Source: Escherichia phage PBECO4. From it: 64,000 bases of DNA. A model generated the notes under the pieces. The model was not told the origin of the DNA. It did no database searches and was given only the letters and a program-made list of their open reading frames with translations. Location of the stretch: the sequence record KC295538. One strand, given 5' to 3'. The position numbers were made by a program, and so were the translations under genes. Positions 6,408-57,705 of the stretch are shown here, in pieces (positions within the stretch are counted from its first letter, which is position 1; each line of letters starts with the position of its first letter).

Positions 6408-6900
6408 AGTATTCCTTTAGAACTTTATATGATTCAACAATACTATCTTGTGTATAATTTGAACTATATACAACAGCACTTGTTTTAGTTGACCATAGAT
6501 ATGACATAAAGGTTATAACACTACTACATGGACTTAATGTATTGTTTTGGAATTCAATTTCTTCAATGTTATCAGTACTGGTATTGATGAATTGTAAAGT
6601 ATCCATTGATTTATTGTACAGCGATACTATAGTAGAATCCGTACCAGGACTATACATGAATGTCTCATTGCTAATAGTACTATCATTAGTATATGATGGT
6701 TTAGGAATATAAATCAAACGCATGATATCACGCTCCAGACCTGACTTATTACTTTCCACCAAAGAAATCATATCTATATTTGTTATATGTTCAACACTGA
6801 CATGGAACTTTTTGTTTAGAATTACATCTTTTGGAGAATTTTTATATGAAGATAAGATCTCATACATCTCAACTAATTCTCGTGCATTTAATAAACTCAT
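6391..6900 (-). CDS. hypothetical protein
   Basis: 169 aa ORF in array; motif not clear. Confidence 0.55.
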   Translation of the reverse strand: MSLLNARELVEMYEILSSYKNSPKDVILNKKFHVSVEHITNIDMISLVESNKSGLERDIMRLIYIPKPSYTNDSTISNETFMYSPGTDSTIVSLYNKSMDTLQFINTSTDNIEEIEFQNNTLSPCSSVITFMSYLWSTKTSAVVYSSNYTQDSIVESYKVLKEYYENNK

Positions 6901-7325
6901 GTTTTGTCTCTTAATGAAAGAATATCCTTAGTATAAACTGAAACAGAAATATGATTATATTTCATCATTAATTTATACACATAAGAAGCTAGTACTAAAT
7001 CGTAAATTAATTTAGTATTATATAGTACTTGGTATTGTAACGCAAGTGAATCAATATCATCTTTACTTTCAATATCCAGAAATGTACCAAAAATTGTAGT
7101 ACCGTGGAGATGAAAAGTGGAATTAATGCAATCAATGCATTCATTGTCCAACAGAGTAGATGATGATGCCCTCGGTGAATCCCAAATAGTCACTGCGTGT
7201 ATGCCCTCAACGAACAAATCTATCCATATTTTGTGTCGTTGTCTTTTTTTTGTTTTATAATTTTCTGGATTTGAAAGTGTAGTTTCAATTATATCCCATA
7301 TGTACAAACAATCATCTCTTGTCAT
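6897..7325 (-). CDS. hypothetical protein
   Basis: 142 aa ORF; stop/start overlap with neighbours. Confidence 0.55.
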   Translation of the reverse strand: MTRDDCLYIWDIIETTLSNPENYKTKKRQRHKIWIDLFVEGIHAVTIWDSPRASSSTLLDNECIDCINSTFHLHGTTIFGTFLDIESKDDIDSLALQYQVLYNTKLIYDLVLASYVYKLMMKYNHISVSVYTKDILSLRDKT

Positions 7326-7903
7326 TATAGCACCTTATCCATTGCTGCATTTAATGCTTTTAAACGATCTACATTCAAATTATTGAAGATGTATGTTCCT
7401 AACATGTGGAAATCGAACTGGTACTTTTTGTATTCATGATAAATTAAACTACAAAAAATAACAGTACTAAGAACCTCTTCATGTATAACAGTGCTCATCT
7501 GGAACAGTTCTTCTTCAACTGTACTTGATTCTGGATTGATAGCTTTTAACACATACTCTTCATCACCGAATAGTACTTTAATATTATATAAAACACTAAT
7601 AGTACTAATATGGAATGGGTGGTGTGAAAAACTTCCATCATCCTTAATTTGTATATCGGTTCTAATCTCACACTCTTCATTACTTTTATTTTTATTTTTT
7701 ACAATACAAATATTTCTAGCCCCAGAAATAGTAAGAATACCGTGATCGTAATATTCATTGGACCAACATTTAGATGAAATTGCTACATCACGGATGAGGT
7801 ATTGTTTTTCAATTTCTTTTGCACTACTAACAATTGATAACATTTTTGTACTGATATCATATAATAACTGATGGCGTTCTGTCATATAACTATAAGCGTT
7901 CAT
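7325..7903 (-). CDS. FamA paralog
   Basis: 192 aa; EEELFQMSTVIH. Confidence 0.7.
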   Translation of the reverse strand: MNAYSYMTERHQLLYDISTKMLSIVSSAKEIEKQYLIRDVAISSKCWSNEYYDHGILTISGARNICIVKNKNKSNEECEIRTDIQIKDDGSFSHHPFHISTISVLYNIKVLFGDEEYVLKAINPESSTVEEELFQMSTVIHEEVLSTVIFCSLIYHEYKKYQFDFHMLGTYIFNNLNVDRLKALNAAMDKVL

Positions 7904-8474
7904 ATTTTTCCTTAACCGATTCTATATTTTGAAGTAGTGTATTCAGAACATCAGTCTTGTAATTGATAAAATCATTGTACATAACTAGTTCACCACAATC
8001 AAGAACTTTTGCAGTATCGTAACAAAGCATTAAGTACTCGAATTCTTTGTAATTGTCCAACAATGATTTCTGGAAAATGAATGCATCTCGAATATCTTCA
8101 CTTTGGTCTAATTCTGGTGGAACATCCAACCCAATAAAACCATCATCTTCACTGAAATCAGATTCTACAATTTTATTCATTTTTTCATGTAATGCATTCG
8201 CAAATACCATATTAGAAGAAATAGAACCAATACGTTCACGATTTCTGGATGTGCGAATGTACATAGTAATCGTATCCCATGAACTTTTAATTTTTTTAGA
8301 AAATTCATAAGTTTTATATACATCCAACTGAACTGAACCAAAACGATGTTTGGATTTGTTTTCAATTTTCAGTCGATAATCATCAAATTCAACAATTTCT
8401 GTAATGTCATGAATCTCTGAAAGTTCTGCAATGTCATGCATGAGTCTCAAAATTTTAGTTCTGATATGGTTCAT
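7890..8474 (-). CDS. FamA paralog
   Basis: 194 aa; DAFIFQKSLLD. Confidence 0.7.
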   Translation of the reverse strand: MNHIRTKILRLMHDIAELSEIHDITEIVEFDDYRLKIENKSKHRFGSVQLDVYKTYEFSKKIKSSWDTITMYIRTSRNRERIGSISSNMVFANALHEKMNKIVESDFSEDDGFIGLDVPPELDQSEDIRDAFIFQKSLLDNYKEFEYLMLCYDTAKVLDCGELVMYNDFINYKTDVLNTLLQNIESVKEKYERL

Positions 8475-9037
8475 TGTGCATCCTCGAATTTAACAGGTAC
8501 ATATTCATTAATGAAATTCTTAAGAGCCTGTACTAAATCCTCTAATTCTTTTGTACTGTATTTTAAAATAGTTTTAAAGTGAATCAAATCTTTTCTTTCC
8601 ATGATCTTTGGAATTTTATATGCTAACTCTAAACAGCGTACAGTACTGGCATCATACAAAAGGTTTGCGTTGAACATTAGCACATTGTATTCATCAGATG
8701 AAATTTTATAATTATATGTATCAATCACTTCATGTGTGTATAAATTCTTATACACAATTTTATTCTCACTGAAGTTTGAGCAAACACACAGATAATCGTT
8801 GTAAAATGAAGAACGATAATCTTGTTTACGTTGTACATCTGCTATGATTTGTAATACTGTATATTTTTCTTCAGAATCCAACTCAATGTTAGCATAACTG
8901 CTCGCAGTTTCAGATACAAGGATATTGATGTTATATTTCTCATTAACTTTAATGTACTGGCGTGAACCAGTATCAGGAATGAACTTAAAACAATGCTTCA
9001 GAAGTAAGGTAACTTCTTTAATTAATTCAGTACTCAT
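8471..9037 (-). CDS. hypothetical protein
   Basis: 188 aa ORF; motif degenerate. Confidence 0.55.
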   Translation of the reverse strand: MSTELIKEVTLLLKHCFKFIPDTGSRQYIKVNEKYNINILVSETASSYANIELDSEEKYTVLQIIADVQRKQDYRSSFYNDYLCVCSNFSENKIVYKNLYTHEVIDTYNYKISSDEYNVLMFNANLLYDASTVRCLELAYKIPKIMERKDLIHFKTILKYSTKELEDLVQALKNFINEYVPVKFEDAQ

Positions 9038-9108
9038 ATCTTCTCCTATCCTCTATTAAAAGCGATTATAACACATCTGAATGCTACTGTAAAGACATAA
9101 ACACAAAA

Positions 9109-9124
9109 AGACCCATAAGGGTCT
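9109..9124. terminator. bidirectional intrinsic terminator
   Basis: agacccataagggtct hairpin flanked by A-run and T-run. Confidence 0.55.
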
Positions 9125-9691
9125 TTATTTTGGTAAAACACTGTCAATGTACGCTAGAGCTTCATCTCTAAGGTACGTCCCATCTATTGTTAGGTAATAG
9201 TTCATGGGAATATCACTCCCAACGTTCTCATAAATTTTCATACATGATATCACATCTTCATCACAAATGGTACTCAATTGAAAAAGTACTTCATCGGTTA
9301 ACGGTACGATATCAAGTTTAGATATAGGATTGGTATTTTCATTCAACACAATATTAATCAAGTTAGGAGTATTCTTTGACGAAATGTAACGATGCTTACT
9401 ACGAATTACCATTCTCGATAGTGAAATACTGGAACTCCATCTTGGATCAACATCTTCATATGATAACGATATTAACATCTCGTGAAAATCTTGAAATTTC
9501 ATTGACGCATAATATGTTTTGTCCTCACCGTACATTCCAAATGATTTGAATTCAATATCCCCTACTTTGTATGTATCGACATCATTATTTGAGAACTTTA
9601 TTAAACTCTTAATTAGTCTAATTAGAATATCATCTTTATCCATTCTTAAATAACTCCAAGTGCATGTCGTATAAATCTCTGAAGTCTTCAT
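9125..9691 (-). CDS. FamA paralog
   Basis: 188 aa; DEVLFQLSTICD. Confidence 0.7.
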   Translation of the reverse strand: MKTSEIYTTCTWSYLRMDKDDILIRLIKSLIKFSNNDVDTYKVGDIEFKSFGMYGEDKTYYASMKFQDFHEMLISLSYEDVDPRWSSSISLSRMVIRSKHRYISSKNTPNLINIVLNENTNPISKLDIVPLTDEVLFQLSTICDEDVISCMKIYENVGSDIPMNYYLTIDGTYLRDEALAYIDSVLPK

Positions 9692-10199
9692 AGAAATCTT
9701 TTTCTACCAGAATATCCTTTAAACTAGGAAACTCTTCCATAATTTCTTCTATATCCGATTCTATGAAAAACCCTGATCGATTATCGTAGTTTTGTAACAG
9801 ATAACTGAAAGTAATAATGTAAAGAAGTTCATTAGGATTGTGAATTAAACTTAGCTGGAACATAGCTGATTCTAAATCGGATTCAGTACTAAGATCAACC
9901 CAACGTGAATTTCTATAATCAATTCGTACTTGACTTGTATTTGGATTCCATGTGAAGCAATGTGTACCAATATGACCTATACAACCAACCCTTGTACTGT
10001 CTCCGGTATCAACACTGATATCAACAAATAGTTCAACACAGATATCGGATGATGTTACACGACCTTTTTTCAGAAATAAATCATTATCCTTACGAAATTG
10101 TTTGGATGAAAGAGTGTCAATGATGCACATCAATGTTTTTGCAAATGCAACACAATGACGAAATTCAAGCCTATGAAATTGGTAATCATTGATATTCAT
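9636..10199 (-). CDS. FamA paralog
   Basis: 187 aa; ESAMFQLSLIH. Confidence 0.7.
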   Translation of the reverse strand: MNINDYQFHRLEFRHCVAFAKTLMCIIDTLSSKQFRKDNDLFLKKGRVTSSDICVELFVDISVDTGDSTRVGCIGHIGTHCFTWNPNTSQVRIDYRNSRWVDLSTESDLESAMFQLSLIHNPNELLYIITFSYLLQNYDNRSGFFIESDIEEIMEEFPSLKDILVEKDFYEDFRDLYDMHLELFKNG

Positions 10200-10738
10200 A
10201 ATTCAACCCCCAATATTTTATCAGCAATTGATATAACCTTATCATTGAATACATTACCAATCTCAATCCTTATATACATAGCAGGTGGAATCTTTCCTTG
10301 TAGTGAATAATATGTTTGTATACCTAAGTACTCATTATCTGATAATGAAAATTTGATTCTCTCCATATCAATGTCTGTTACTGGTAAATCAATCATTTCA
10401 TAATGGTAGTCAACGTTTTCAGTGTATATTTTATCGAAGTAATTTGAATAATCACTACTAATATAGATGCTATCATCACGAATAATCACTTTATAATCAG
10501 AAGGTTCAAATTTATCTTTAGAAGAAAAGAATGCATCATCTATCTTCTCTTCTCTTATACCGAATAACATTTTACCATCATATTTTACATCAAGAATACT
10601 ACCTAGTATATTAATGGTACAATGCTCATCAATATTATGACGTAAAGAATGAGTCTTGTATTTTGGGTTAATGAAAATTTTCATTAATTTTATACAAATG
10701 TCAGTAATGCATTTTACATTCTCATTTTCTATGTACAT
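10196..10738 (-). CDS. hypothetical protein
   Basis: 180 aa ORF. Confidence 0.55.
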   Translation of the reverse strand: MYIENENVKCITDICIKLMKIFINPKYKTHSLRHNIDEHCTINILGSILDVKYDGKMLFGIREEKIDDAFFSSKDKFEPSDYKVIIRDDSIYISSDYSNYFDKIYTENVDYHYEMIDLPVTDIDMERIKFSLSDNEYLGIQTYYSLQGKIPPAMYIRIEIGNVFNDKVISIADKILGVEL

Positions 10739-11216
10739 TAAAAGCCCTCTTTAATTCTTTTACATTTTTAATGAATACTTTCATTGCAGAAATCTCAAAA
10801 GATAATGTATTAAATTTGCAGTACTTTTTAAAGTACGACATAATGAATAGCATTTTGAGTTCTTTTTCTGTGTAAATTAAACTATTTTGAAAGTAACTTT
10901 CTTCTGATAAATCATCAAGAAACGGATATAAAACTCCATTTGTTCTCAAGAACATGATACCTTCACTCCATGATCTAAATGAAAGGTAATCAGTCTTACC
11001 ACATTCATATAAGGAGTTTATCATTCCATCAATCATTAAGGAGAACTCAATACTGTATCCTAATCTTTCACACTTGTATCTCTTATCTTCTTTCTTTGTA
11101 ATTACGAAGTGATGACCCAGTGAGTCTTTGTTATCGAAAATGAAATCAACTGTCTCTAAACACTCCTTAGCGAACTTCATAGTTTCTCTGTACTTTCGGT
11201 TCATTAGTCTCTCCAA
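10722..11216 (-). CDS. FamA paralog
   Basis: 164 aa; EESYFQNSLIY. Confidence 0.7.
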   Translation of the reverse strand: MERLMNRKYRETMKFAKECLETVDFIFDNKDSLGHHFVITKKEDKRYKCERLGYSIEFSLMIDGMINSLYECGKTDYLSFRSWSEGIMFLRTNGVLYPFLDDLSEESYFQNSLIYTEKELKMLFIMSYFKKYCKFNTLSFEISAMKVFIKNVKELKRAFNVHRK

Positions 11217-11617
11217 ACTTTACCAGGGAAGTGTTTCTCGTAGTACTCATCATCACTTAACATATAATCAGGAGTTTCTACTTCTATGGTTTTGAAGATT
11301 GTTTCTGGAATGTGTGTGACTTTATTGGGTTGTACTTTATGTTCGCGTAAAACCTTCTGTATCGCTCCTAGACGTTGTAAATCGATACATGTAGGAAAGA
11401 CTAAGCTGTACTGAAATAACTCATCAGGGGTCATTATAGACACATCTTTCGCTTGTTTGATTTGATAATTAGTACTAATGAATATATCAAATCCTTGTAC
11501 AGCATTATAGCTTACATAGGTTGTTTTATTTTTGTCAATAGGAGCACTTAAACGATATCCATATACCCCGTGTTGATCAACAAGACAGCGTTGTATAATT
11601 TTAATCATTTCTAACAT
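11204..11617 (-). CDS. FamA paralog
   Basis: 137 aa; PDELFQYSLVF. Confidence 0.7.
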   Translation of the reverse strand: MLEMIKIIQRCLVDQHGVYGYRLSAPIDKNKTTYVSYNAVQGFDIFISTNYQIKQAKDVSIMTPDELFQYSLVFPTCIDLQRLGAIQKVLREHKVQPNKVTHIPETIFKTIEVETPDYMLSDDEYYEKHFPGKVWRD

Positions 11618-11963
11618 AATTTACCTCATATGTATTGTAACACCACGGTTTAACAATATCGATTTGTATATCATTTGCTTCATGAAAATGTTTAAGTACC
11701 TTCTGGTATTCCATTATTTCGTACACATCTTCAGTACTGATAGTGCTCTCCTGAAATAATTCCTCTTCTGATAAAGTACTATAATCAGGGATTTTTATTT
11801 CTGAATATATATCATTTATCTTTCCATTATTTTGATAAATCTGGATATAAAATTGATTGTACTCTGGAATATAGGTTACATAATGGTTGTGGTTGATTAC
11901 ATATCTTGAAACAAAGTATTCAGTACCATCCGTCATGTACTGAATTGTTGTTGTATTATGCAT
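11601..11963 (-). CDS. FamA paralog
   Basis: 120 aa; EEELFQESTIS. Confidence 0.7.
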   Translation of the reverse strand: MHNTTTIQYMTDGTEYFVSRYVINHNHYVTYIPEYNQFYIQIYQNNGKINDIYSEIKIPDYSTLSEEELFQESTISTEDVYEIMEYQKVLKHFHEANDIQIDIVKPWCYNTYEVNYVRND

Positions 11964-12438
11964 TCAAATAATCCACGCATTGATGGTATACAACTAAATC
12001 TATAAAGAATCGTTGTTTGTATTTGTAATGATGAAGTAGTGCACCATAAAGTAATATAGCATTAAGTACTTTTGCATCATGAATACAAGACCCTTGGAAG
12101 TACATTTCTTCTGTCATGAAAACTAACTCACTATAAGGGACAAGCACTGAATCTCTAAAGGTATCAATATTAATCTTCAAATCAGACCCAGGGCAATATG
12201 AAATATATTCGGTTTTGTAATGAAAGTCATTATCATCAAAGTACTCCGCGTAGATTTGATTACCTCTAACATTAGTAAATGCTAGTCTTCCTTTAGATGA
12301 ACTGAACTCATCGTATTGAAACATACCACCAAAAGGCATTCCACCAAAAGGCTTAGGACTTCTGAACTCCTTTGCAATGCGATAGATATTTTCTGTAAAT
12401 TCTAAAACACCATCGTAATCATATTCTGTAGTAATCAT
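11956..12438 (-). CDS. FamA paralog
   Basis: 160 aa; EEMYFQGSCIHD. Confidence 0.7.
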   Translation of the reverse strand: MITTEYDYDGVLEFTENIYRIAKEFRSPKPFGGMPFGGMFQYDEFSSSKGRLAFTNVRGNQIYAEYFDDNDFHYKTEYISYCPGSDLKINIDTFRDSVLVPYSELVFMTEEMYFQGSCIHDAKVLNAILLYGALLHHYKYKQRFFIDLVVYHQCVDYLNA

Positions 12439-12911
12439 AAACCATTTTTCTCCAGGTACTCAATAATACAATCGACATTGTTCAGGTCCAAGTAGAAATG
12501 ATCACTATCGGAATTTAGTTCATTTTTAAGGGCAGTGTAAATCACAGAACTGAAAACAATCCTCTCTGGATACACAGTACTGTACTGGAAGAACTCTTCT
12601 TCAGTGTTAATTACAATCGTATTAAATGCTTCATTTATAAGAAGATGATTGTAGTATTTGAAATTATCTGAACTTGGAAAATGGTATGAAATAAAATCAC
12701 CACTTGGTACTTCATCAAGTACTCTAATGCTACAAGTTGATTCATCTGAACTATAGAGTAACCCATCCATAAATGAAAGGTATCCATTTCGTTTAATAAC
12801 TTTATGTTCCCCCACGGAAAAATCTTCAGTAACATTCGCAAGGAATTTATAAACCCTGATAATGTCTTTTGCTATTTTTTGTGCATTGCTAAATGATAGG
12901 TCTTTGGACAT
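12435..12911 (-). CDS. FamA paralog
   Basis: 158 aa; EEEFFQYSTVY ... FYLDL. Confidence 0.7.
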   Translation of the reverse strand: MSKDLSFSNAQKIAKDIIRVYKFLANVTEDFSVGEHKVIKRNGYLSFMDGLLYSSDESTCSIRVLDEVPSGDFISYHFPSSDNFKYYNHLLINEAFNTIVINTEEEFFQYSTVYPERIVFSSVIYTALKNELNSDSDHFYLDLNNVDCIIEYLEKNGL

Positions 12912-12970
12912 TGTGATATAACCCTTTACAATTAATATAAAGAGATTATATCACAAAGAATCGGAGGGTG

Positions 12971-13555
12971 TCAAGATGGGTTGCGAAGTTCTACCATTTC
13001 TTTCCAAACTAATTGGTAATCTTCTAAGTCCAGATAGAAGTCTTCATTCCAGTGCTCATAAAAGTACTTATACATGAATAGAACTCCTAAATCGTATGCA
13101 GGAAACAATAATGATAGTTGAAAGTAGTATTCCTGATTTAAAACTATATCAATGAACTCTAATGTACGTATGCCACCTTTCGATGAACGTATCTCAATGT
13201 GTGAGGTATCCTTTATACTGTAACACATGAAACCGCCTCTGAATTCTGGATCATATTCACATTCGAACTGCTCACTGTTGTTATAGAAATCTCTCCCACT
13301 TTCTTTATCTTTCGGTCTACGTACTGATACATGAATATTGTTATCACGGTACATTGAACGATTTAGTATTTTCAAACATTTGAACTTATTTTCTTTAATG
13401 AACTTGATAATATCAATTATATCTTGTGCTGTACTGATAGCTGATTCGAATGTATCCAACTTAAGATGATTATATTGTGTTCCATTGTTCATTTTTTCAT
13501 CTAACATATAAACCTCATAATTCATACATTTTTGATTTGAACTGCATATGACCAC
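12971..13555 (-). CDS. FamA paralog
   Basis: 194 aa; QEYYFQLSLLF ... FYLDL. Confidence 0.7.
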   Translation of the reverse strand: MVICSSNQKCMNYEVYMLDEKMNNGTQYNHLKLDTFESAISTAQDIIDIIKFIKENKFKCLKILNRSMYRDNNIHVSVRRPKDKESGRDFYNNSEQFECEYDPEFRGGFMCYSIKDTSHIEIRSSKGGIRTLEFIDIVLNQEYYFQLSLLFPAYDLGVLFMYKYFYEHWNEDFYLDLEDYQLVWKEMVELRNPS

Positions 13556-13850
13556 CTATTTCACATGGATAACAATTCATAATTTTGTTCAATAAAATCT
13601 GGTATTTTTTAATAACTTCTATATCAATTTTTATATTACTATTAAAAACTAATGATTCTTGAAATAATTCACCCTCGTCAAGTGAAGTAAAATCATTTAT
13701 CTTCAACGGTATATTGTTGCATCGCAAGGAGAATGTATTTTCATCACGAATTAAAGTATAGAAATCATTATGTTTTTTATTATAATCAAATTTCACAAGT
13801 AGTAGTTTAATATGAGTAGCGTACATTACTTTCACTAATTCAGTCTTCAT
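13515..13850 (-). CDS. FamA paralog
   Basis: 111 aa; EGELFQESLVF. Confidence 0.7.
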   Translation of the reverse strand: MKTELVKVMYATHIKLLLVKFDYNKKHNDFYTLIRDENTFSLRCNNIPLKINDFTSLDEGELFQESLVFNSNIKIDIEVIKKYQILLNKIMNCYPCEIGGHMQFKSKMYEL

Positions 13851-14202
13851 AACGGAATAAAATTCTCCTGTACTGCTCCGGTCCAGTACTCAATCTCTTC
13901 ACTGGATAATTATCAAAGATTCTTTTCATTTCTTTCTGGATTAAACATAAGAAATCAAAGTTACAATCGTACTTATTATCCCATACTAAACTTTCTTGGA
14001 ATAACTCATCCTCTTGCATTAGTGTAGTGTCAATTACATCTTCACGAACATAGCTATATACTTCATAGCTCTTGAAGCCATCTTCTGATAATTCTAATTC
14101 ATATGCAGCCATATCAAACATATCATCATGGTTTGTCTTCAATGATATAAAACAAGTAACTAATTTTTTAGTTGTATAGTATGTAATACTTAATGTGTTC
14201 AT
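13840..14202 (-). CDS. FamA paralog
   Basis: 120 aa; EDELFQESLVWD. Confidence 0.7.
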   Translation of the reverse strand: MNTLSITYYTTKKLVTCFISLKTNHDDMFDMAAYELELSEDGFKSYEVYSYVREDVIDTTLMQEDELFQESLVWDNKYDCNFDFLCLIQKEMKRIFDNYPVKRLSTGPEQYRRILFRYED

Positions 14203-14207
14203 TTGTT

Positions 14208-14810
14208 TTATACCTCAGTATAAAGCTTACAATAGCTTTCATCAAAATCACAAACACTTCTCAAGTACTGACACAGGTCAGTAAAAATATTTACATTTGC
14301 TATATATACATTATCAAATTCTACTCGTTGAAAGAATGTATGCATAGAATTTGTAATATATCTCATTGCAGATTCACGTTCCATCGTTAAATCATTTGTG
14401 AACATTGCATCTTCATCAGTACTGACTAATTCAATATCAAATGATTGCATATATGGAATACTCTTTCCTAGGGCATAACTATCACCATATGATGCTTCTA
14501 CTGCACCGTTAGAATACACCAATTGATATAAGTCCGAAATAGGGTTATAAAAAGTGCGGCAAATTGAGGAACATAATTTATTATTCATCCAATAGAAAAC
14601 CCTATTTGAATTACCGTCAAATGCTATACGCAATCCATCACCATCTAGAGTAATAATCCCATCCAGAATAAAAGAGAACTGAACTAATGCTTTTTCTAAG
14701 TCCATTCTTTTGTGATAAATGATTTCTTGCATATAGATAATATCATTTACTAATTTCTTAAAAAACAAATGCACATCTGCACTACAACATTTATTTGCAT
14801 TTATTGGCAT
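14208..14810 (-). CDS. FamA-like paralog (divergent)
   Basis: 200 aa; EKALVQFSFILD. Confidence 0.55.
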   Translation of the reverse strand: MPINANKCCSADVHLFFKKLVNDIIYMQEIIYHKRMDLEKALVQFSFILDGIITLDGDGLRIAFDGNSNRVFYWMNNKLCSSICRTFYNPISDLYQLVYSNGAVEASYGDSYALGKSIPYMQSFDIELVSTDEDAMFTNDLTMERESAMRYITNSMHTFFQRVEFDNVYIANVNIFTDLCQYLRSVCDFDESYCKLYTEV

Positions 14811-30854: not shown

Positions 30855-31060
30855 TTTCTCAGTACTGATTCTTTAAGTTCATTAATGTAGCACTCTACAT
30901 ATTCTTCTTGTAGGTTTGTTCCGATATGTAACAGTACTCTTAAATCTGCTCTCAGTACTTCTTTGTCATCTTCATCTATATCAGACAGTGTTATGTTTAA
31001 GAATTTACTTGAACTCTCTATAAGTAATATTACTGAATCACCTTTGCTTAAAATTTTCAT
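30839..31060 (-). CDS. FamB paralog
   Basis: 73 aa; LLHIGTNLQEEYV. Confidence 0.65.
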   Translation of the reverse strand: MKILSKGDSVILLIESSSKFLNITLSDIDEDDKEVLRADLRVLLHIGTNLQEEYVECYINELKESVLRKCKCK

Positions 31061-31268
31061 AATCTCTTTTTGCTTTCCTCGCCAAAAGGTACATATACGA
31101 TTCTTCGTATTGTGCTTGGAAGTTTGTGTTTAAGAGTCGAAACAACTTCTGTTCTGCTAGAACGAGTTGCTTATCTTCATAACAACGGTAGCGTATCAAC
31201 TTTTTGTATTCGATGTTGATTACATCCATTACTATAAGTCCATGTTCATCATCTGTCAAGTGTTTCAT
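31038..31268 (-). CDS. FamB paralog
   Basis: 76 aa; FRLLNTNFQAQYE. Confidence 0.6.
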   Translation of the reverse strand: MKHLTDDEHGLIVMDVINIEYKKLIRYRCYEDKQLVLAEQKLFRLLNTNFQAQYEESYMYLLARKAKRDYENFKQR

Positions 31269-31507
31269 GCATTTTTTCTTTTTCTTATATGTTTAGTTAA
31301 AAGGTATATTAGTTTTCTGATGTATTCTTCCTGATAGTTTGTTCCTAGGAGTGCAAGAAGTTTTGCTTCAACTAAAGCTAATTGACGTTCTTCGAATGTG
31401 TGTTCCAGTATGTACTTGGGGTTTGATTTTTTAGAAATTGCACTATTAGTTTTCATTACAATCGTATGATATTCATTAACTGTTAGGATTTTTAAATTCT
31501 TGAGCAT
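31265..31507 (-). CDS. FamB paralog
   Basis: 80 aa; LALLGTNYQEEYI. Confidence 0.65.
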   Translation of the reverse strand: MLKNLKILTVNEYHTIVMKTNSAISKKSNPKYILEHTFEERQLALVEAKLLALLGTNYQEEYIRKLIYLLTKHIRKRKNA

Positions 31508-49355: not shown

Positions 49356-49414
49356 GGGAGAACCATTTCTCCCCTTGATGTAATGTATTATACTTTATTC
49401 GATTTACTTTGCAA
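49356..49414 (-). promoter_or_regulatory. PeSL-like promoter + leader hairpin
   Basis: TTGCAA..TATAAT then ggggagaaatggttctccc. Confidence 0.6.
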
Positions 49415-49423
49415 GTACTTTTT

Positions 49424-49734: not shown

Positions 49735-49893
49735 GTACTTTTTATTACTTTTTGCAAAATACTTTAAACGCTCTCAATCGCATTCTAACGACCTTAACGC
49801 CACCAGCTAGGGCGATGTATCAGATAATCAGTTTAATGCGTTAGAATCGATTCTAGGCGGTGCTGGTGGACTGGAATACTACAGACACAAAAA

Positions 49894-49915
49894 AGCCCAC
49901 TGTTTAAGGTGGGCT
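49894..49915 (-). terminator. intrinsic terminator
   Basis: agcccaccttaaacagtgggct + T6 on minus strand; identical copy at 50628-50649. Confidence 0.65.
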
Positions 49916-50555: not shown

Positions 50556-50627
50556 TTGTGGTAATGTCAACTACTATTTTAAAACTATTTTTAAAGTATG
50601 CAGTACTACGATAATACAAAAACAAAA

Positions 50628-50649
50628 AAGCCCACTGTTTAAGGTGGGC
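50628..50649 (-). terminator. intrinsic terminator
   Basis: same hairpin + T-run as 49894-49915. Confidence 0.65.
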
Positions 50650-50667
50650 TAGTGATTCAGTACTATA

Positions 50668-50967
50668 TTATAAACAGTTAATTACTCCGGTGTGCGTTAC
50701 TTTCTCAGTATCCATAACCGTGACCGATCCACGCTTAGTACTTACATCGTAATAAATTGTCGTGCTACCTTTTTCGTCTTCTTCATGGAACGGGCCGCTT
50801 TTAAATGCTTCTGGCTGGATCTCTAAATCCTTTAAAACAATCTCGCCAGTACTTTCATCTGTCATCGCAACAGTGCACTGAATGAATTTTTCACTACTTA
50901 CATCTAACGACGCATTAACAGCGAAAGAGGAAACAGATAAAGCCAGGGCGATGATTGCAATTTTCAT
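50668..50967 (-). CDS. exported small protein (signal peptide)
   Basis: MKIAIIALALSVSSFAVNA / SLD: hydrophobic core with AxA-type cleavage motif. Confidence 0.6.
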   Translation of the reverse strand: MKIAIIALALSVSSFAVNASLDVSSEKFIQCTVAMTDESTGEIVLKDLEIQPEAFKSGPFHEEDEKGSTTIYYDVSTKRGSVTVMDTEKVTHTGVINCL

Positions 50968-50987
50968 TTGATTATCCTTAGTTACCA

Positions 50988-51046
50988 GGGGGAACCGCTC
51001 CCCCGTGCGATGTAAAATATTGTACAGTACTAAAAACTAATTGCAA
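50988..51046 (-). promoter_or_regulatory. PeSL-like promoter + leader hairpin
   Basis: TTGCAA..TACAAT then gggggagcggttccccc. Confidence 0.6.
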
Positions 51047-51051
51047 GTACT

Positions 51052-51288
51052 TTATGATTTTTTATAAAACATTTCGGCAGTAATATTTTTACCCGTTGGT
51101 TGTACTTTATCCAGAATTTTTTGATGCCCTGGCCGTCCAAATGAATATGATCCGTAAACCGTAAACCAGTAGTTACCCTCAGTGTTTACATGTACAGCAC
51201 AATAGGGAACGCCCCGCGATTCATCACCAATAAAGTGTGATACCGTTCCCGTTACATTAGCAGACGTTGATTTGATTTGTTCAAGCAT
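51052..51288 (-). CDS. hypothetical protein
   Basis: 78 aa ORF. Confidence 0.55.
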   Translation of the reverse strand: MLEQIKSTSANVTGTVSHFIGDESRGVPYCAVHVNTEGNYWFTVYGSYSFGRPGHQKILDKVQPTGKNITAEMFYKKS

Positions 51289-51309
51289 TTTCTTATTCCT
51301 TAGTTACCA

Positions 51310-51363
51310 GGGGGAACCGCTCCCCCTATGCAAAACATTATACGCGTTTAAAAACTAATAGCA
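51310..51363 (-). promoter_or_regulatory. PeSL-like promoter + leader hairpin
   Basis: promoter then gggggagcggttccccc. Confidence 0.55.
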
Positions 51364-51397
51364 AGTATTTTAATAAAAAGTATTTGAAAAATAATTG

Positions 51398-51426
51398 TTG
51401 ACAACTGCATCCAGTACTGGCATAAT
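51398..51426 (+). promoter_or_regulatory. plus-strand sigma70-like promoter (antisense to flanking genes)
   Basis: TTGACA-N17-CATAAT, reading into ..ctaacccaccgggtgc.. element. Confidence 0.5.
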
Positions 51427-51506
51427 TACTACATCAAGACGAAACAGTCACTAACCCACCGGGTGCCGAGATCCGTCTATTAAATGATTCAGTACTTAAC
51501 AATAAA

Positions 51507-51771: not shown

Positions 51772-51830
51772 GGGAGAACCATTTCTCCCCTCTATGTAAA
51801 CTATTATACAGTACTGAAAACTAATTGCAA
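51772..51830 (-). promoter_or_regulatory. PeSL-like promoter + leader hairpin
   Basis: TTGCAA-N16-TATAAT then ggggagaaatggttctccc. Confidence 0.65.
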
Positions 51831-51836
51831 GTACTT

Positions 51837-52025
51837 TTAATTAAATTCCATAAAATCATTCTCAACGTGCACAACAATTTGATTGTTTTTAAAGTCCGCA
51901 GCGAACTCGATGCAATCATAAACCGCTTTTTGTGTTACAATGCTATGAGTACCAATCGGATTAATAGGGGATTGAATTGTTTCAATCTCGTTCCCTTGCT
52001 CATTAACAATTAAAATATTAAACAT
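51837..52025 (-). CDS. hypothetical protein
   Basis: 62 aa ORF. Confidence 0.5.
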   Translation of the reverse strand: MFNILIVNEQGNEIETIQSPINPIGTHSIVTQKAVYDCIEFAADFKNNQIVVHVENDFMEFN

Positions 52026-56069: not shown

Positions 56070-56097
56070 TTGACTTGATCCTGAAAAAGCGTATAAT
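56070..56097 (+). promoter_or_regulatory. plus-strand sigma70-like promoter
   Basis: TTGACT-N16-TATAAT in ORF-free region. Confidence 0.5.
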
Positions 56098-56284
56098 TAC
56101 TACATAGACGCGAGAAAGCGGAAACCCCAGAGGGTGCGGAATTACGCCCAAAATTCAAGATATAAAAAAAGGATACACTCCCGCACCCTAGCAGGTAAAC
56201 GCACTTTCTCAGTACTGAATTATAGTACCATAGTCCGGCCCAGGATGGCAAGCAAATTAATTAAAACTTTTTTCATCCAGGGTA

Positions 56285-56312
56285 TTGCTTTATTTTTCCA
56301 GTACTGTATAAT
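56285..56312 (+). promoter_or_regulatory. plus-strand sigma70-like promoter
   Basis: TTGCTT-N16-TATAAT. Confidence 0.45.
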
Positions 56313-56409
56313 AGTTCCATCAAGTCGAGAAAGACTCAAGCCCACCGGGTGCATAGTTACGCCCAAAATTCAGTACTGAAAAAATTTTTAAAAATATCCG
56401 TCCAGGCCG

Positions 56410-56534: not shown

Positions 56535-56655
56535 TTAGCCGTCTATACTTCCAGACGTGTAACCATCTAGCCGTTTAGCCGTCCAAACGTCTAGCCATCC
56601 AGCCATCCAGAAATCTAGCCGTTTAGCCGTCTAGATGGATAGCCATCTTTACTTC
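56535..56655. repeat. iteron-like direct repeat array (TAGCCGTY / AGCCATC units)
   Basis: ttagccgtc, ctagccgtttagccgtc (twice), ctagccatccagccatccag, agatggatagccatc within ~120 bp. Confidence 0.65.
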
Positions 56656-57077: not shown

Positions 57078-57705
57078 TAGCTTTCTTTCATTATTCAGTA
57101 CTGATATTCTTGAGAACTACCCGACTACAAACATCATTATATCCCACAAATCATAAACGTCCCAACGTAAATTTCAACTTTCGAAGATCCAACTTTTATT
57201 TCATAGGTACTCCAAAATTTTTAGGATCGAGATTTAGGATGGAGTACTAACCAACTTTTTGCTGGAGCCTCAAGGGGTAATGGAATTTTACCCCGAAGGG
57301 TAAAGGGGTAATTGAAATTAAGGTGAAAGTAATAATTCAGTACTAATCATTGCGTGATTACTTTTGATTACATTTGATGTAATTTGAAAAATGGAAAAGG
57401 AGCTTGGAAACTACAAAGTACGGCAGACTTCCTCTGCCTACTTAGTGGCATATCAGTACTGAATCCTTCCCGTGCATTCTTGAGCATTCTTGTCTATACT
57501 AATCAGTACTGAATCATATATAATCATTCTGTGATTCTACGGTGCTCATATAAATGTTTATATATGATTACTTATGACTACCTATGATTACGGGGTTTAG
57601 CCTGGGGAGAATCCTAGTGATCGCATTTGTCCAGGCTGAATTTTAACAATTCGCCTGTACATAAAGGTTGTTCACTAGGAGCTTCCCCTGTCTACTTGTG
57701 TTTAA

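Follow-up and report, generated by a model that had tools for sequence, protein, structure and literature searches.

The window, by which we mean the whole 64,000-nucleotide stretch of sequence record KC295538 (Escherichia phage PBECO4) analysed here, belongs to an Asteriusvirus jumbo myovirus of the 121Q/PBECO4/G17 type. Its minus strand carries a gene for a 99-residue pre-protein (MKIAIIALALSVSSFAVNASLDVSSEKFIQCTVAMTDESTGEIVLKDLEIQPEAFKSGPFHEEDEKGSTTIYYDVSTKRGSVTVMDTEKVTHTGVINCL, translated from ORF 50668..50967), accompanied by a promoter-like site, a leader hairpin, a Shine-Dalgarno sequence and an intrinsic terminator (Table 1). The initial annotation had located this gene and read its N-terminus exactly, the translation opening with MKIAIIALALSVSSFAVNA followed by SLDV; the strand, which it had not given, is minus.

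Table 1 Features of the 99-codon gene, its predicted product and its flanking signals, in window coordinates
Feature	Position	Strand	Basis
Sigma70-type promoter-like site, TTGCAA-16 nt-TACAAT, with AAAGTAC before it	51019..51046	minus	consensus match
5'-leader hairpin, GGGGGA-GCGGU-UCCCCC	50988..51004	minus	centroid energy -11.8 kcal/mol
Shine-Dalgarno sequence AAGGA, 7 nt 5' of the ATG	50975..50979	minus	sequence reading and cassette alignment
CDS of the 99-aa pre-protein	50668..50967, stop codon included	minus	ATG start; phrog_31669 match, E=6e-63
Predicted Sec/SPase I signal peptide MKIAIIALALSVSSFAVNA, codons 1-19, cut after V-N-A	50911..50967	minus	hydropathy, charge pattern
Mature 80-aa acidic domain, predicted all-beta, codons 20-99	50671..50910	minus	AlphaFold2 and alignment
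Cys31 codon, invariant, start of predicted strand 1	50875..50877	minus	two alignments and all full-length relatives
Cys98 codon, invariant, end of predicted strand 6	50674..50676	minus	two alignments and all full-length relatives
Intrinsic terminator AGCCCACCUUAAACAGUGGGCU with U-run	50619..50650, stem 50650..50629	minus	fold z = -2.4

Salmonella phage SD-1_S14 shares 99.5% identity with the 1-kb region around the gene, and about 20 Escherichia phages share 92-97%; orthologues are recorded as hypothetical proteins (G17_00043, PBI_121Q_276 and phAPEC6 gp530c). Pairwise Nei-Gojobori comparison with five orthologues, G17, fEgEco12, 121Q and EJP2 among them, gave dN/dS values of 0.05-0.18, which, together with the existence of distant homologues, indicate that the 99-codon gene is real and under purifying selection. 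No paralogue of the protein was found within the window, a weak match at 31041-31292 being unrelated. Divergence along the gene is uneven: the signal-peptide codons (50911-50967) are 95% identical in nucleotide sequence to 121Q and 86% to EJP2, against only 71% and 63% for the codons of the mature part (50671-50910), with dS of about 0.15 across the 19 signal-peptide codons versus more than 1.8 across the mature part. The low dS at the 5' end points either to constraint at the level of RNA or translation, or to recombination, which would homogenise the 5' end and leave the mature domain to diverge.

The protein is a true member of the family represented by phrog_31669 and by CPT_Muenster_039 of Klebsiella phage Muenster; its match to the phrog_31669 HMM runs end to end (residues 1-99 of 99), and Muenster-type, rV5-type and bacterial relatives match the same profile at 1e-8 to 1e-15. 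Exhaustive HMMER and profile searches recovered about 45 clusters of relatives, all of them from Enterobacterales phages or genomes. Relatives outside Asteriusvirus carry an insertion of 20-40 residues between the signal peptide and the first cysteine, which the window protein lacks.

The initial annotation had described the gene as lying between its own leader cassette and an identical-copy terminator, and both descriptions hold. In addition to the promoter-like site, G/C hairpin and Shine-Dalgarno sequence, a conserved GTTTTACATC-like stretch lies between the promoter-like site and the hairpin, and a 27-nt core of the leader recurs exactly at 51300-51326, preceding a neighbouring 78-aa gene. 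The terminator begins 17 nt past the stop codon, and 27 nt of it are repeated exactly at 49889-49915, beyond the next gene, when no such copy would be expected by chance; at the orthologous positions, both sites are annotated as terminators in the G17 record. At least 15 related cassettes stand on the minus strand between 44 and 56 kb, ahead of nearly every small gene (copies include 50968-51053, 51289-51375, 49367-49421 and 51783-51837), each composed of a UP-like AAAGTAC, TTGCAA or TTGACA, a spacer of 16-17 nt, TATAAT, GTTTTACATC, a G/C-rich hairpin and a Shine-Dalgarno sequence. Promoter-like hexamer pairs as such are not above shuffled sequence in this AT-rich region (14 found vs 12.4 expected), and the case for a promoter rests on the repeated, extended and position-specific cassette, not on the hexamer score.

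The hairpin stems of the cassettes vary in a partly compensatory manner, one pair being G-C in seven copies, A-U in six and G-U in two, and the orthologous leaders of 121Q and EJP2 retain the hairpin with a different stem sequence. A role in mRNA stability or as the binding site of a regulator is possible; an Rfam search over 49-58 kb, which included the cassette hairpin, returned no matches.

Two further features of this region are recorded here as separate observations. In fEgEco12 and phAPEC6 an extra 76-aa gene (fEgEco12 g11 / phAPEC6 gp529c) lies between the orthologue and its terminator and is missing from the window and from G17 (window 50651-50675 compared with fEgEco12, L008, 5584-5840 and phAPEC6, L017, 922-1152); gene content therefore varies inside one transcription unit bounded by repeated cassettes. 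On the plus strand, a strong promoter-like sequence, TTGACA-17-(TG)CATAAT, points the opposite way to the early genes, with a conserved stretch of about 54 nt after it. This stretch is present in three copies; the loci (51398-51475, 56093-56146 and 56308-56361) have no Rfam match and could give rise to small antisense or divergent transcripts.

The setting of the gene within the phage chromosome was taken from phage fEgEco12, whose genome has a direct terminal repeat (DTR) of 20,993 bp, as established with PhageTerm and by restriction digestion (PMC13070987). When the first 22 kb of the fEgEco12 genome were compared with the window by BLAST, position 1 of that genome fell at window position 57442, in reverse orientation, and its DTR ended at about 36.5 kb. 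By this alignment, the 99-codon gene lies about 6.5 kb inside the direct terminal repeat of about 21 kb, is the tenth gene counted from the left physical end, and would therefore be present in two copies per packaged genome. Distant homologues in the Klebsiella phages Muenster and fENko-Kae01 also lie within annotated terminal repeats. In jumbo phages, nearly all genes of the terminal repeats are hypothetical.

In CBB, a related phage, short ORFs are preceded by RpoD-like promoters that carry UP-like elements; these promoters reach into the terminal repeat and were read as marking the early region (Buttimer et al., PMC5259590). The earlier description of the surroundings as an early-type cassette fits this picture, since the window combines sigma70-like promoters with a terminal-repeat location and the same arrangement was predicted for CBB. 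Given the position in the terminal repeat and the CBB parallel, early expression driven by host RNA polymerase is a reasonable reading and, in our judgement, likely, its timing resting on promoter consensus; a literature search found no transcript data for Asteriusvirus. Separately, a degenerate tandem array with an 8-bp period (TAGCCGTC, about 12 copies) occupies 56536-56634, within the largely non-coding segment 55258-57442 and about 0.8 kb inside window position 57442, the equivalent of the fEgEco12 left physical end; given this proximity, it could relate to the terminus or to packaging.

The N-terminus has the organisation of a classical signal peptide, as the initial annotation had proposed, with a basic n-region (K2), a hydrophobic h-region (IAIIALALSV) and a polar c-region ending in V17-N-A19 before S20. 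The maximum mean Kyte-Doolittle hydropathy over eight residues is 3.3, and acidic residues are absent from positions 1-18. With V at -3 and A at -1, the cleavage site is of the AxA type only in a loose sense. Since no cysteine stands at +1 of the cleavage site to form a lipobox, the first being Cys31, the protein is predicted to be a substrate of signal peptidase I and not a lipoprotein. Among the 218 ATG-initiated ORFs of at least 50 aa in the window, it alone passed a crude home-made signal-peptide filter (basic n-region, hydrophobic run and the -3,-1 rule), which argues that such an N-terminus is no common chance feature of this DNA. The n/h/c organisation is present in 42 of 44 full-length relatives, though the signal sequences differ between subfamilies, and the two exceptions are apparently truncated gene calls on very short contigs. 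In clusters P0015 and P0081, the lipoboxes LSGC and LTGC replace the signal peptidase I site.

That the mature part of about 80 residues resides outside the cytoplasm, as also suggested earlier, agrees with these patterns, with an invariant cysteine pair and even cysteine counts across the family, and with the annotation of CPT_Muenster_039 as a putative secreted protein with SignalP N, H and C regions and a non-cytoplasmic domain. The phAPEC6 virion, with its 62 listed proteins (PMC7247149, Table 1), lacks the orthologue gp530c, and the 99-residue protein is not a virion component. Taken on its in silico evidence, export through Sec to the periplasm followed by cleavage is highly probable.

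The predicted mature product is 80 residues long (8.8 kDa), with a pI of 4.5 and a net charge of -8. AlphaFold2, run on a 14-sequence alignment, gave a pLDDT above 90 over residues 29-99 and left the signal-peptide region disordered at low pLDDT. The model contains six sequential beta-strands (residues 29-37, 43-50, 60-64, 67-74, 79-85 and 90-97) and one short helix of four residues (52-55). Besides C31 and C98, residues G80 and G94 are invariant, and the mature sequence of every relative contains either two or four cysteines, the even counts and the invariant pair being as expected of disulfides formed in the periplasm. Cys31 and Cys98 are presumed to be disulfide partners and, since the first opens strand 1 and the second closes strand 6 of the model, their bond would tie the two ends of the meander together.

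The best conserved motif of the family alignment is H-E-E-D-x-x-G-S-T-T (residues 61-70), and the most conserved positions lie in the loop joining strands 1 and 2 (E38 and G41), in the hairpin of strands 3 and 4 (E63, G67, S68, T69 and T70) and in the loop joining strands 5 and 6 (an M-D pair). Because loops 1-2, 3-4 and 5-6 share one end of the molecule in a meander, we infer from the alignment and the model that these conserved acidic loops likely form a binding pole.

Searches of Pfam, NCBIfam, PADLOC and PDB sequences, with the single sequence and with a family profile, assigned no family and returned just noise from the signal peptide or lipobox, and Pfam matched none of the 14 family members at E<=1. 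Foldseek against the PDB with the predicted domain found nothing below 1e-3, and a search of BFVD recovered family members only. No homologue with a known function was found, Pfam, NCBIfam and PADLOC included. Judged by these sequence and model comparisons, the protein is unrelated to the known small periplasmic accessory proteins of phages, and its family is uncharacterised, with a predicted fold that has no informative relatives. To our knowledge, very few phage proteins act in the periplasm (T4 Sp and Imm, T5 Llp, Cor, spanins and antiholins).

The explanation we favour, to which we give somewhat less than an even chance as a whole, is that the gene encodes an early, Sec-exported, disulfide-tied periplasmic binder with which the jumbo phage protects the cell envelope. 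Host RNA polymerase would transcribe the gene right after DNA entry from the gene's own sigma70-type promoter, host Sec would export the pre-protein, and signal peptidase I would cut it after Ala19. An acidic, six-stranded protein of 80 residues would be released in the periplasm, where the Cys31-Cys98 disulfide would join its first and last strands. Its conserved acidic loops (E38/G41, E62-E63-D64..G67 and D86) would bind a periplasmic or envelope target, shielding the envelope of the infected or carrier cell from further phage attack in the manner of superinfection exclusion. The gene itself would be accessory cargo, two copies of which travel in each packaged genome. Both the target and the exclusion function, which the initial annotation had raised as a possibility, are speculative; one candidate for the target, likewise speculative, is the virion-associated lysozyme of incoming relatives, such an enzyme being represented by gp5 in T4 (PMC7677548) and by Gp241 in the phAPEC6 virion (PMC7247149). 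We put forward a function in exclusion or defence, taken by itself, tentatively and as the less secure part of the explanation. Whatever its target, a conserved, predicted-exported and easily expressed protein of 80 residues offers a tractable handle on envelope effects straight after infection.

The main rival to an envelope-protecting binder, and one we think rather unlikely, is a modulator of host physiology in the periplasm, which would inhibit or sequester a peptidoglycan hydrolase, an L,D-transpeptidase or a protease, or bind a ligand or metal. Such an activity could keep the envelope intact or set the timing of lysis over the long cycle of a jumbo phage. A protein that is predicted to be exported, acidic and apparently disulfide-locked, with a conserved pole of acidic loops, would suit this role, as would the location of a small early-type gene amid genes of the host-takeover type; the role is also compatible with a generic likeness to small beta-barrels that bind ligands or proteins, such as hemophilin, NHBA, lipocalin-like proteins and LolA. 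We rank the envelope-protecting binder above the host-directed modulator.

A further reading, which we consider improbable, is that the protein is a divergent, stand-alone PKD-like domain, an Ig-like beta-sandwich secreted to bind a carbohydrate or protein at the surface. Exhaustive HMMER did match the proteins P0011 and P0018 at E-values of 2.8e-6 and 8.8e-4, in both of which Pfam confirms multiple PKD repeats, and hhalign against one PKD repeat was colinear over 59 columns (TD-STG ... PFHE..G) with a probability of 33% and a pairwise E-value of 4.7e-4. However, neither PF00801 nor PF18911 is matched at E<=1, the protein lacks the WDFGDG core, and its predicted topology differs from an Ig-like one. 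The matches to large proteins with PKD and laminin-G repeats are probably spurious, since their significance is a sum of weak repeats.

Also improbable is an N-terminus that stays uncleaved, either as a type II signal-anchor in the inner membrane or on a protein that is not exported. Short hydrophobic N-termini can serve as anchors, but here the uncharged stretch is just about 15 residues long, is interrupted by an internal Ser-Ser and leads into the canonical V-N-A|S site. Moreover, a small-x-small site is kept in all subfamilies, two of which have lipoboxes that need export and processing, and the invariant cysteine pair favours an oxidising compartment.

Homology to T4 Spackle (Sp, gp61.3), with inhibition of the tail-spike lysozyme as by Sp, can be set aside as extremely improbable: fEgEco12 g10 (GenBank PP777464.1; also Gp624) carries the product name 'protein spackle', and the two proteins are alike in length (99 vs 97 aa) and in having a signal peptide and two mature cysteines, but BLASTP gives no alignment to T4 Sp at E<=100, hhalign of the family against it covers signal-peptide residues 1-17 alone at a probability of 10%, so that similarity stops at the signal peptide, and the AlphaFold2 model is all-beta whereas Sp is a compact alpha-helical bundle (PMC7677548). 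The public name derives from an HHpred match to 6X6O_A with E=3.9 and a probability of 69.8% (supplement of the fEgEco12 paper); it is unsupported and, although similarity-based annotation could propagate it, should not be carried further.

Returning to the envelope-protecting binder, several known systems resemble it in kind. T4 Sp is a periplasmic superinfection-exclusion protein that inhibits the gp5 tail lysozyme (PMC7677548), and it shares with the window protein, there as predicted in silico, an early-type gene, a disulfide and a periplasmic destination reached by a Sec signal peptide. A functional analogy to Sp, with no common descent implied, is possible on these likenesses and on the presence of a lysozyme, Gp241, in Asteriusvirus virions. 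Llp of T5 and Cor of T1 and phi80 are small, exported, disulfide-containing and mainly beta proteins that block reinfection and act from the periplasmic side as lipoproteins (PMC9586334); lipoprotein variants also occur in the family of the window protein, but this protein has no lipobox, and no sequence or fold match to Llp or Cor was found.

The lysozyme inhibitors MliC/PliC (PF09864) were suspected as kin from the placement of the cysteines, the duality of lipoprotein and soluble forms and a loose Y-x-x-x-T-K-x-G resemblance. Like the window family, they are small exported beta proteins with soluble periplasmic and lipoprotein forms, in which a cysteine near the first strand pairs with one near the C-terminus; they have an eight-stranded beta-barrel fold and inhibit through loops between beta-strands inserted into the enzyme. 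This candidate was rejected: hhalign of the family against an alignment of 2F09, 3F6Z and 4MIR gave a probability of 0.1% (the E. coli YdhA sequence having been verified against PDB 2F09), there was no Pfam match at E<=1, and the 14 members of the window family did not match the PF09864 profile, its S-x-S-G-A-x-Y and Y-x-x-x-T/S-K-G motifs included.

The distribution of the family extends beyond Asteriusvirus. Its members occur in the terminal repeats of two groups of jumbo phages, in rV5-like phages and in a serine-recombinase island of Enterobacter and Leclercia, and a 124-aa subfamily is found in chromosomes of Enterobacter, Leclercia, Klebsiella, Pectobacterium and Salmonella. In the first two of these genera, the homologue belongs to a conserved island, about 11 kb long, which is inserted with an ABC-F ATPase gene on one side and the gene of a YkuD L,D-transpeptidase on the other. 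Its genes encode, in this order, a large serine recombinase, a 94-aa product, an HTH repressor-like protein, a 101-aa lipoprotein, the homologue, a small resolvase and three proteins that PADLOC matches to components C, B and A of PDC-M60, a candidate defence system, at E-values of 1e-23, 1.5e-35 and 7e-41, respectively.

Presence both in lytic phages and beside candidate defence genes marks the family as mobile cargo. By association, the island context hints weakly at a cell-protective, anti-phage role; the association with PDC-M60 is weak because PDC-M60 is itself merely a candidate and the linkage is that of one conserved island. On a broader reading, which we hold to be doubtful, the whole family (phrog_31669 with its relatives in Klebsiella, Salmonella and Erwinia jumbo phages, rV5-like phages, and Enterobacter and Leclercia) might be an unrecognised class of periplasmic anti-phage proteins. 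Such a class would have a small disulfide-locked beta fold of its own, in soluble and lipoprotein versions, and would be common to jumbo phages and bacterial defence islands; it would be deployed by jumbo phages via the terminal repeat that enters first, and would block an envelope step, for example at the virion lysozyme or at the periplasmic face of a receptor. If the protein is an exclusion factor that phages share with bacterial defence islands, it would define a new family in envelope-level phage defence.

Within the island, the gene for the 101-aa lipoprotein (lipobox LTGC) overlaps the start of the homologue by 4 nt. Its product, which ends in ...TGNCK, had looked by eye like a divergent paralogue, a relationship that was rejected at an hhalign probability of just 3%. 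The island is exemplified by positions 6795-14675 of an Enterobacter metagenome scaffold (L011), and the same arrangement is present in L012-L014 and L007.
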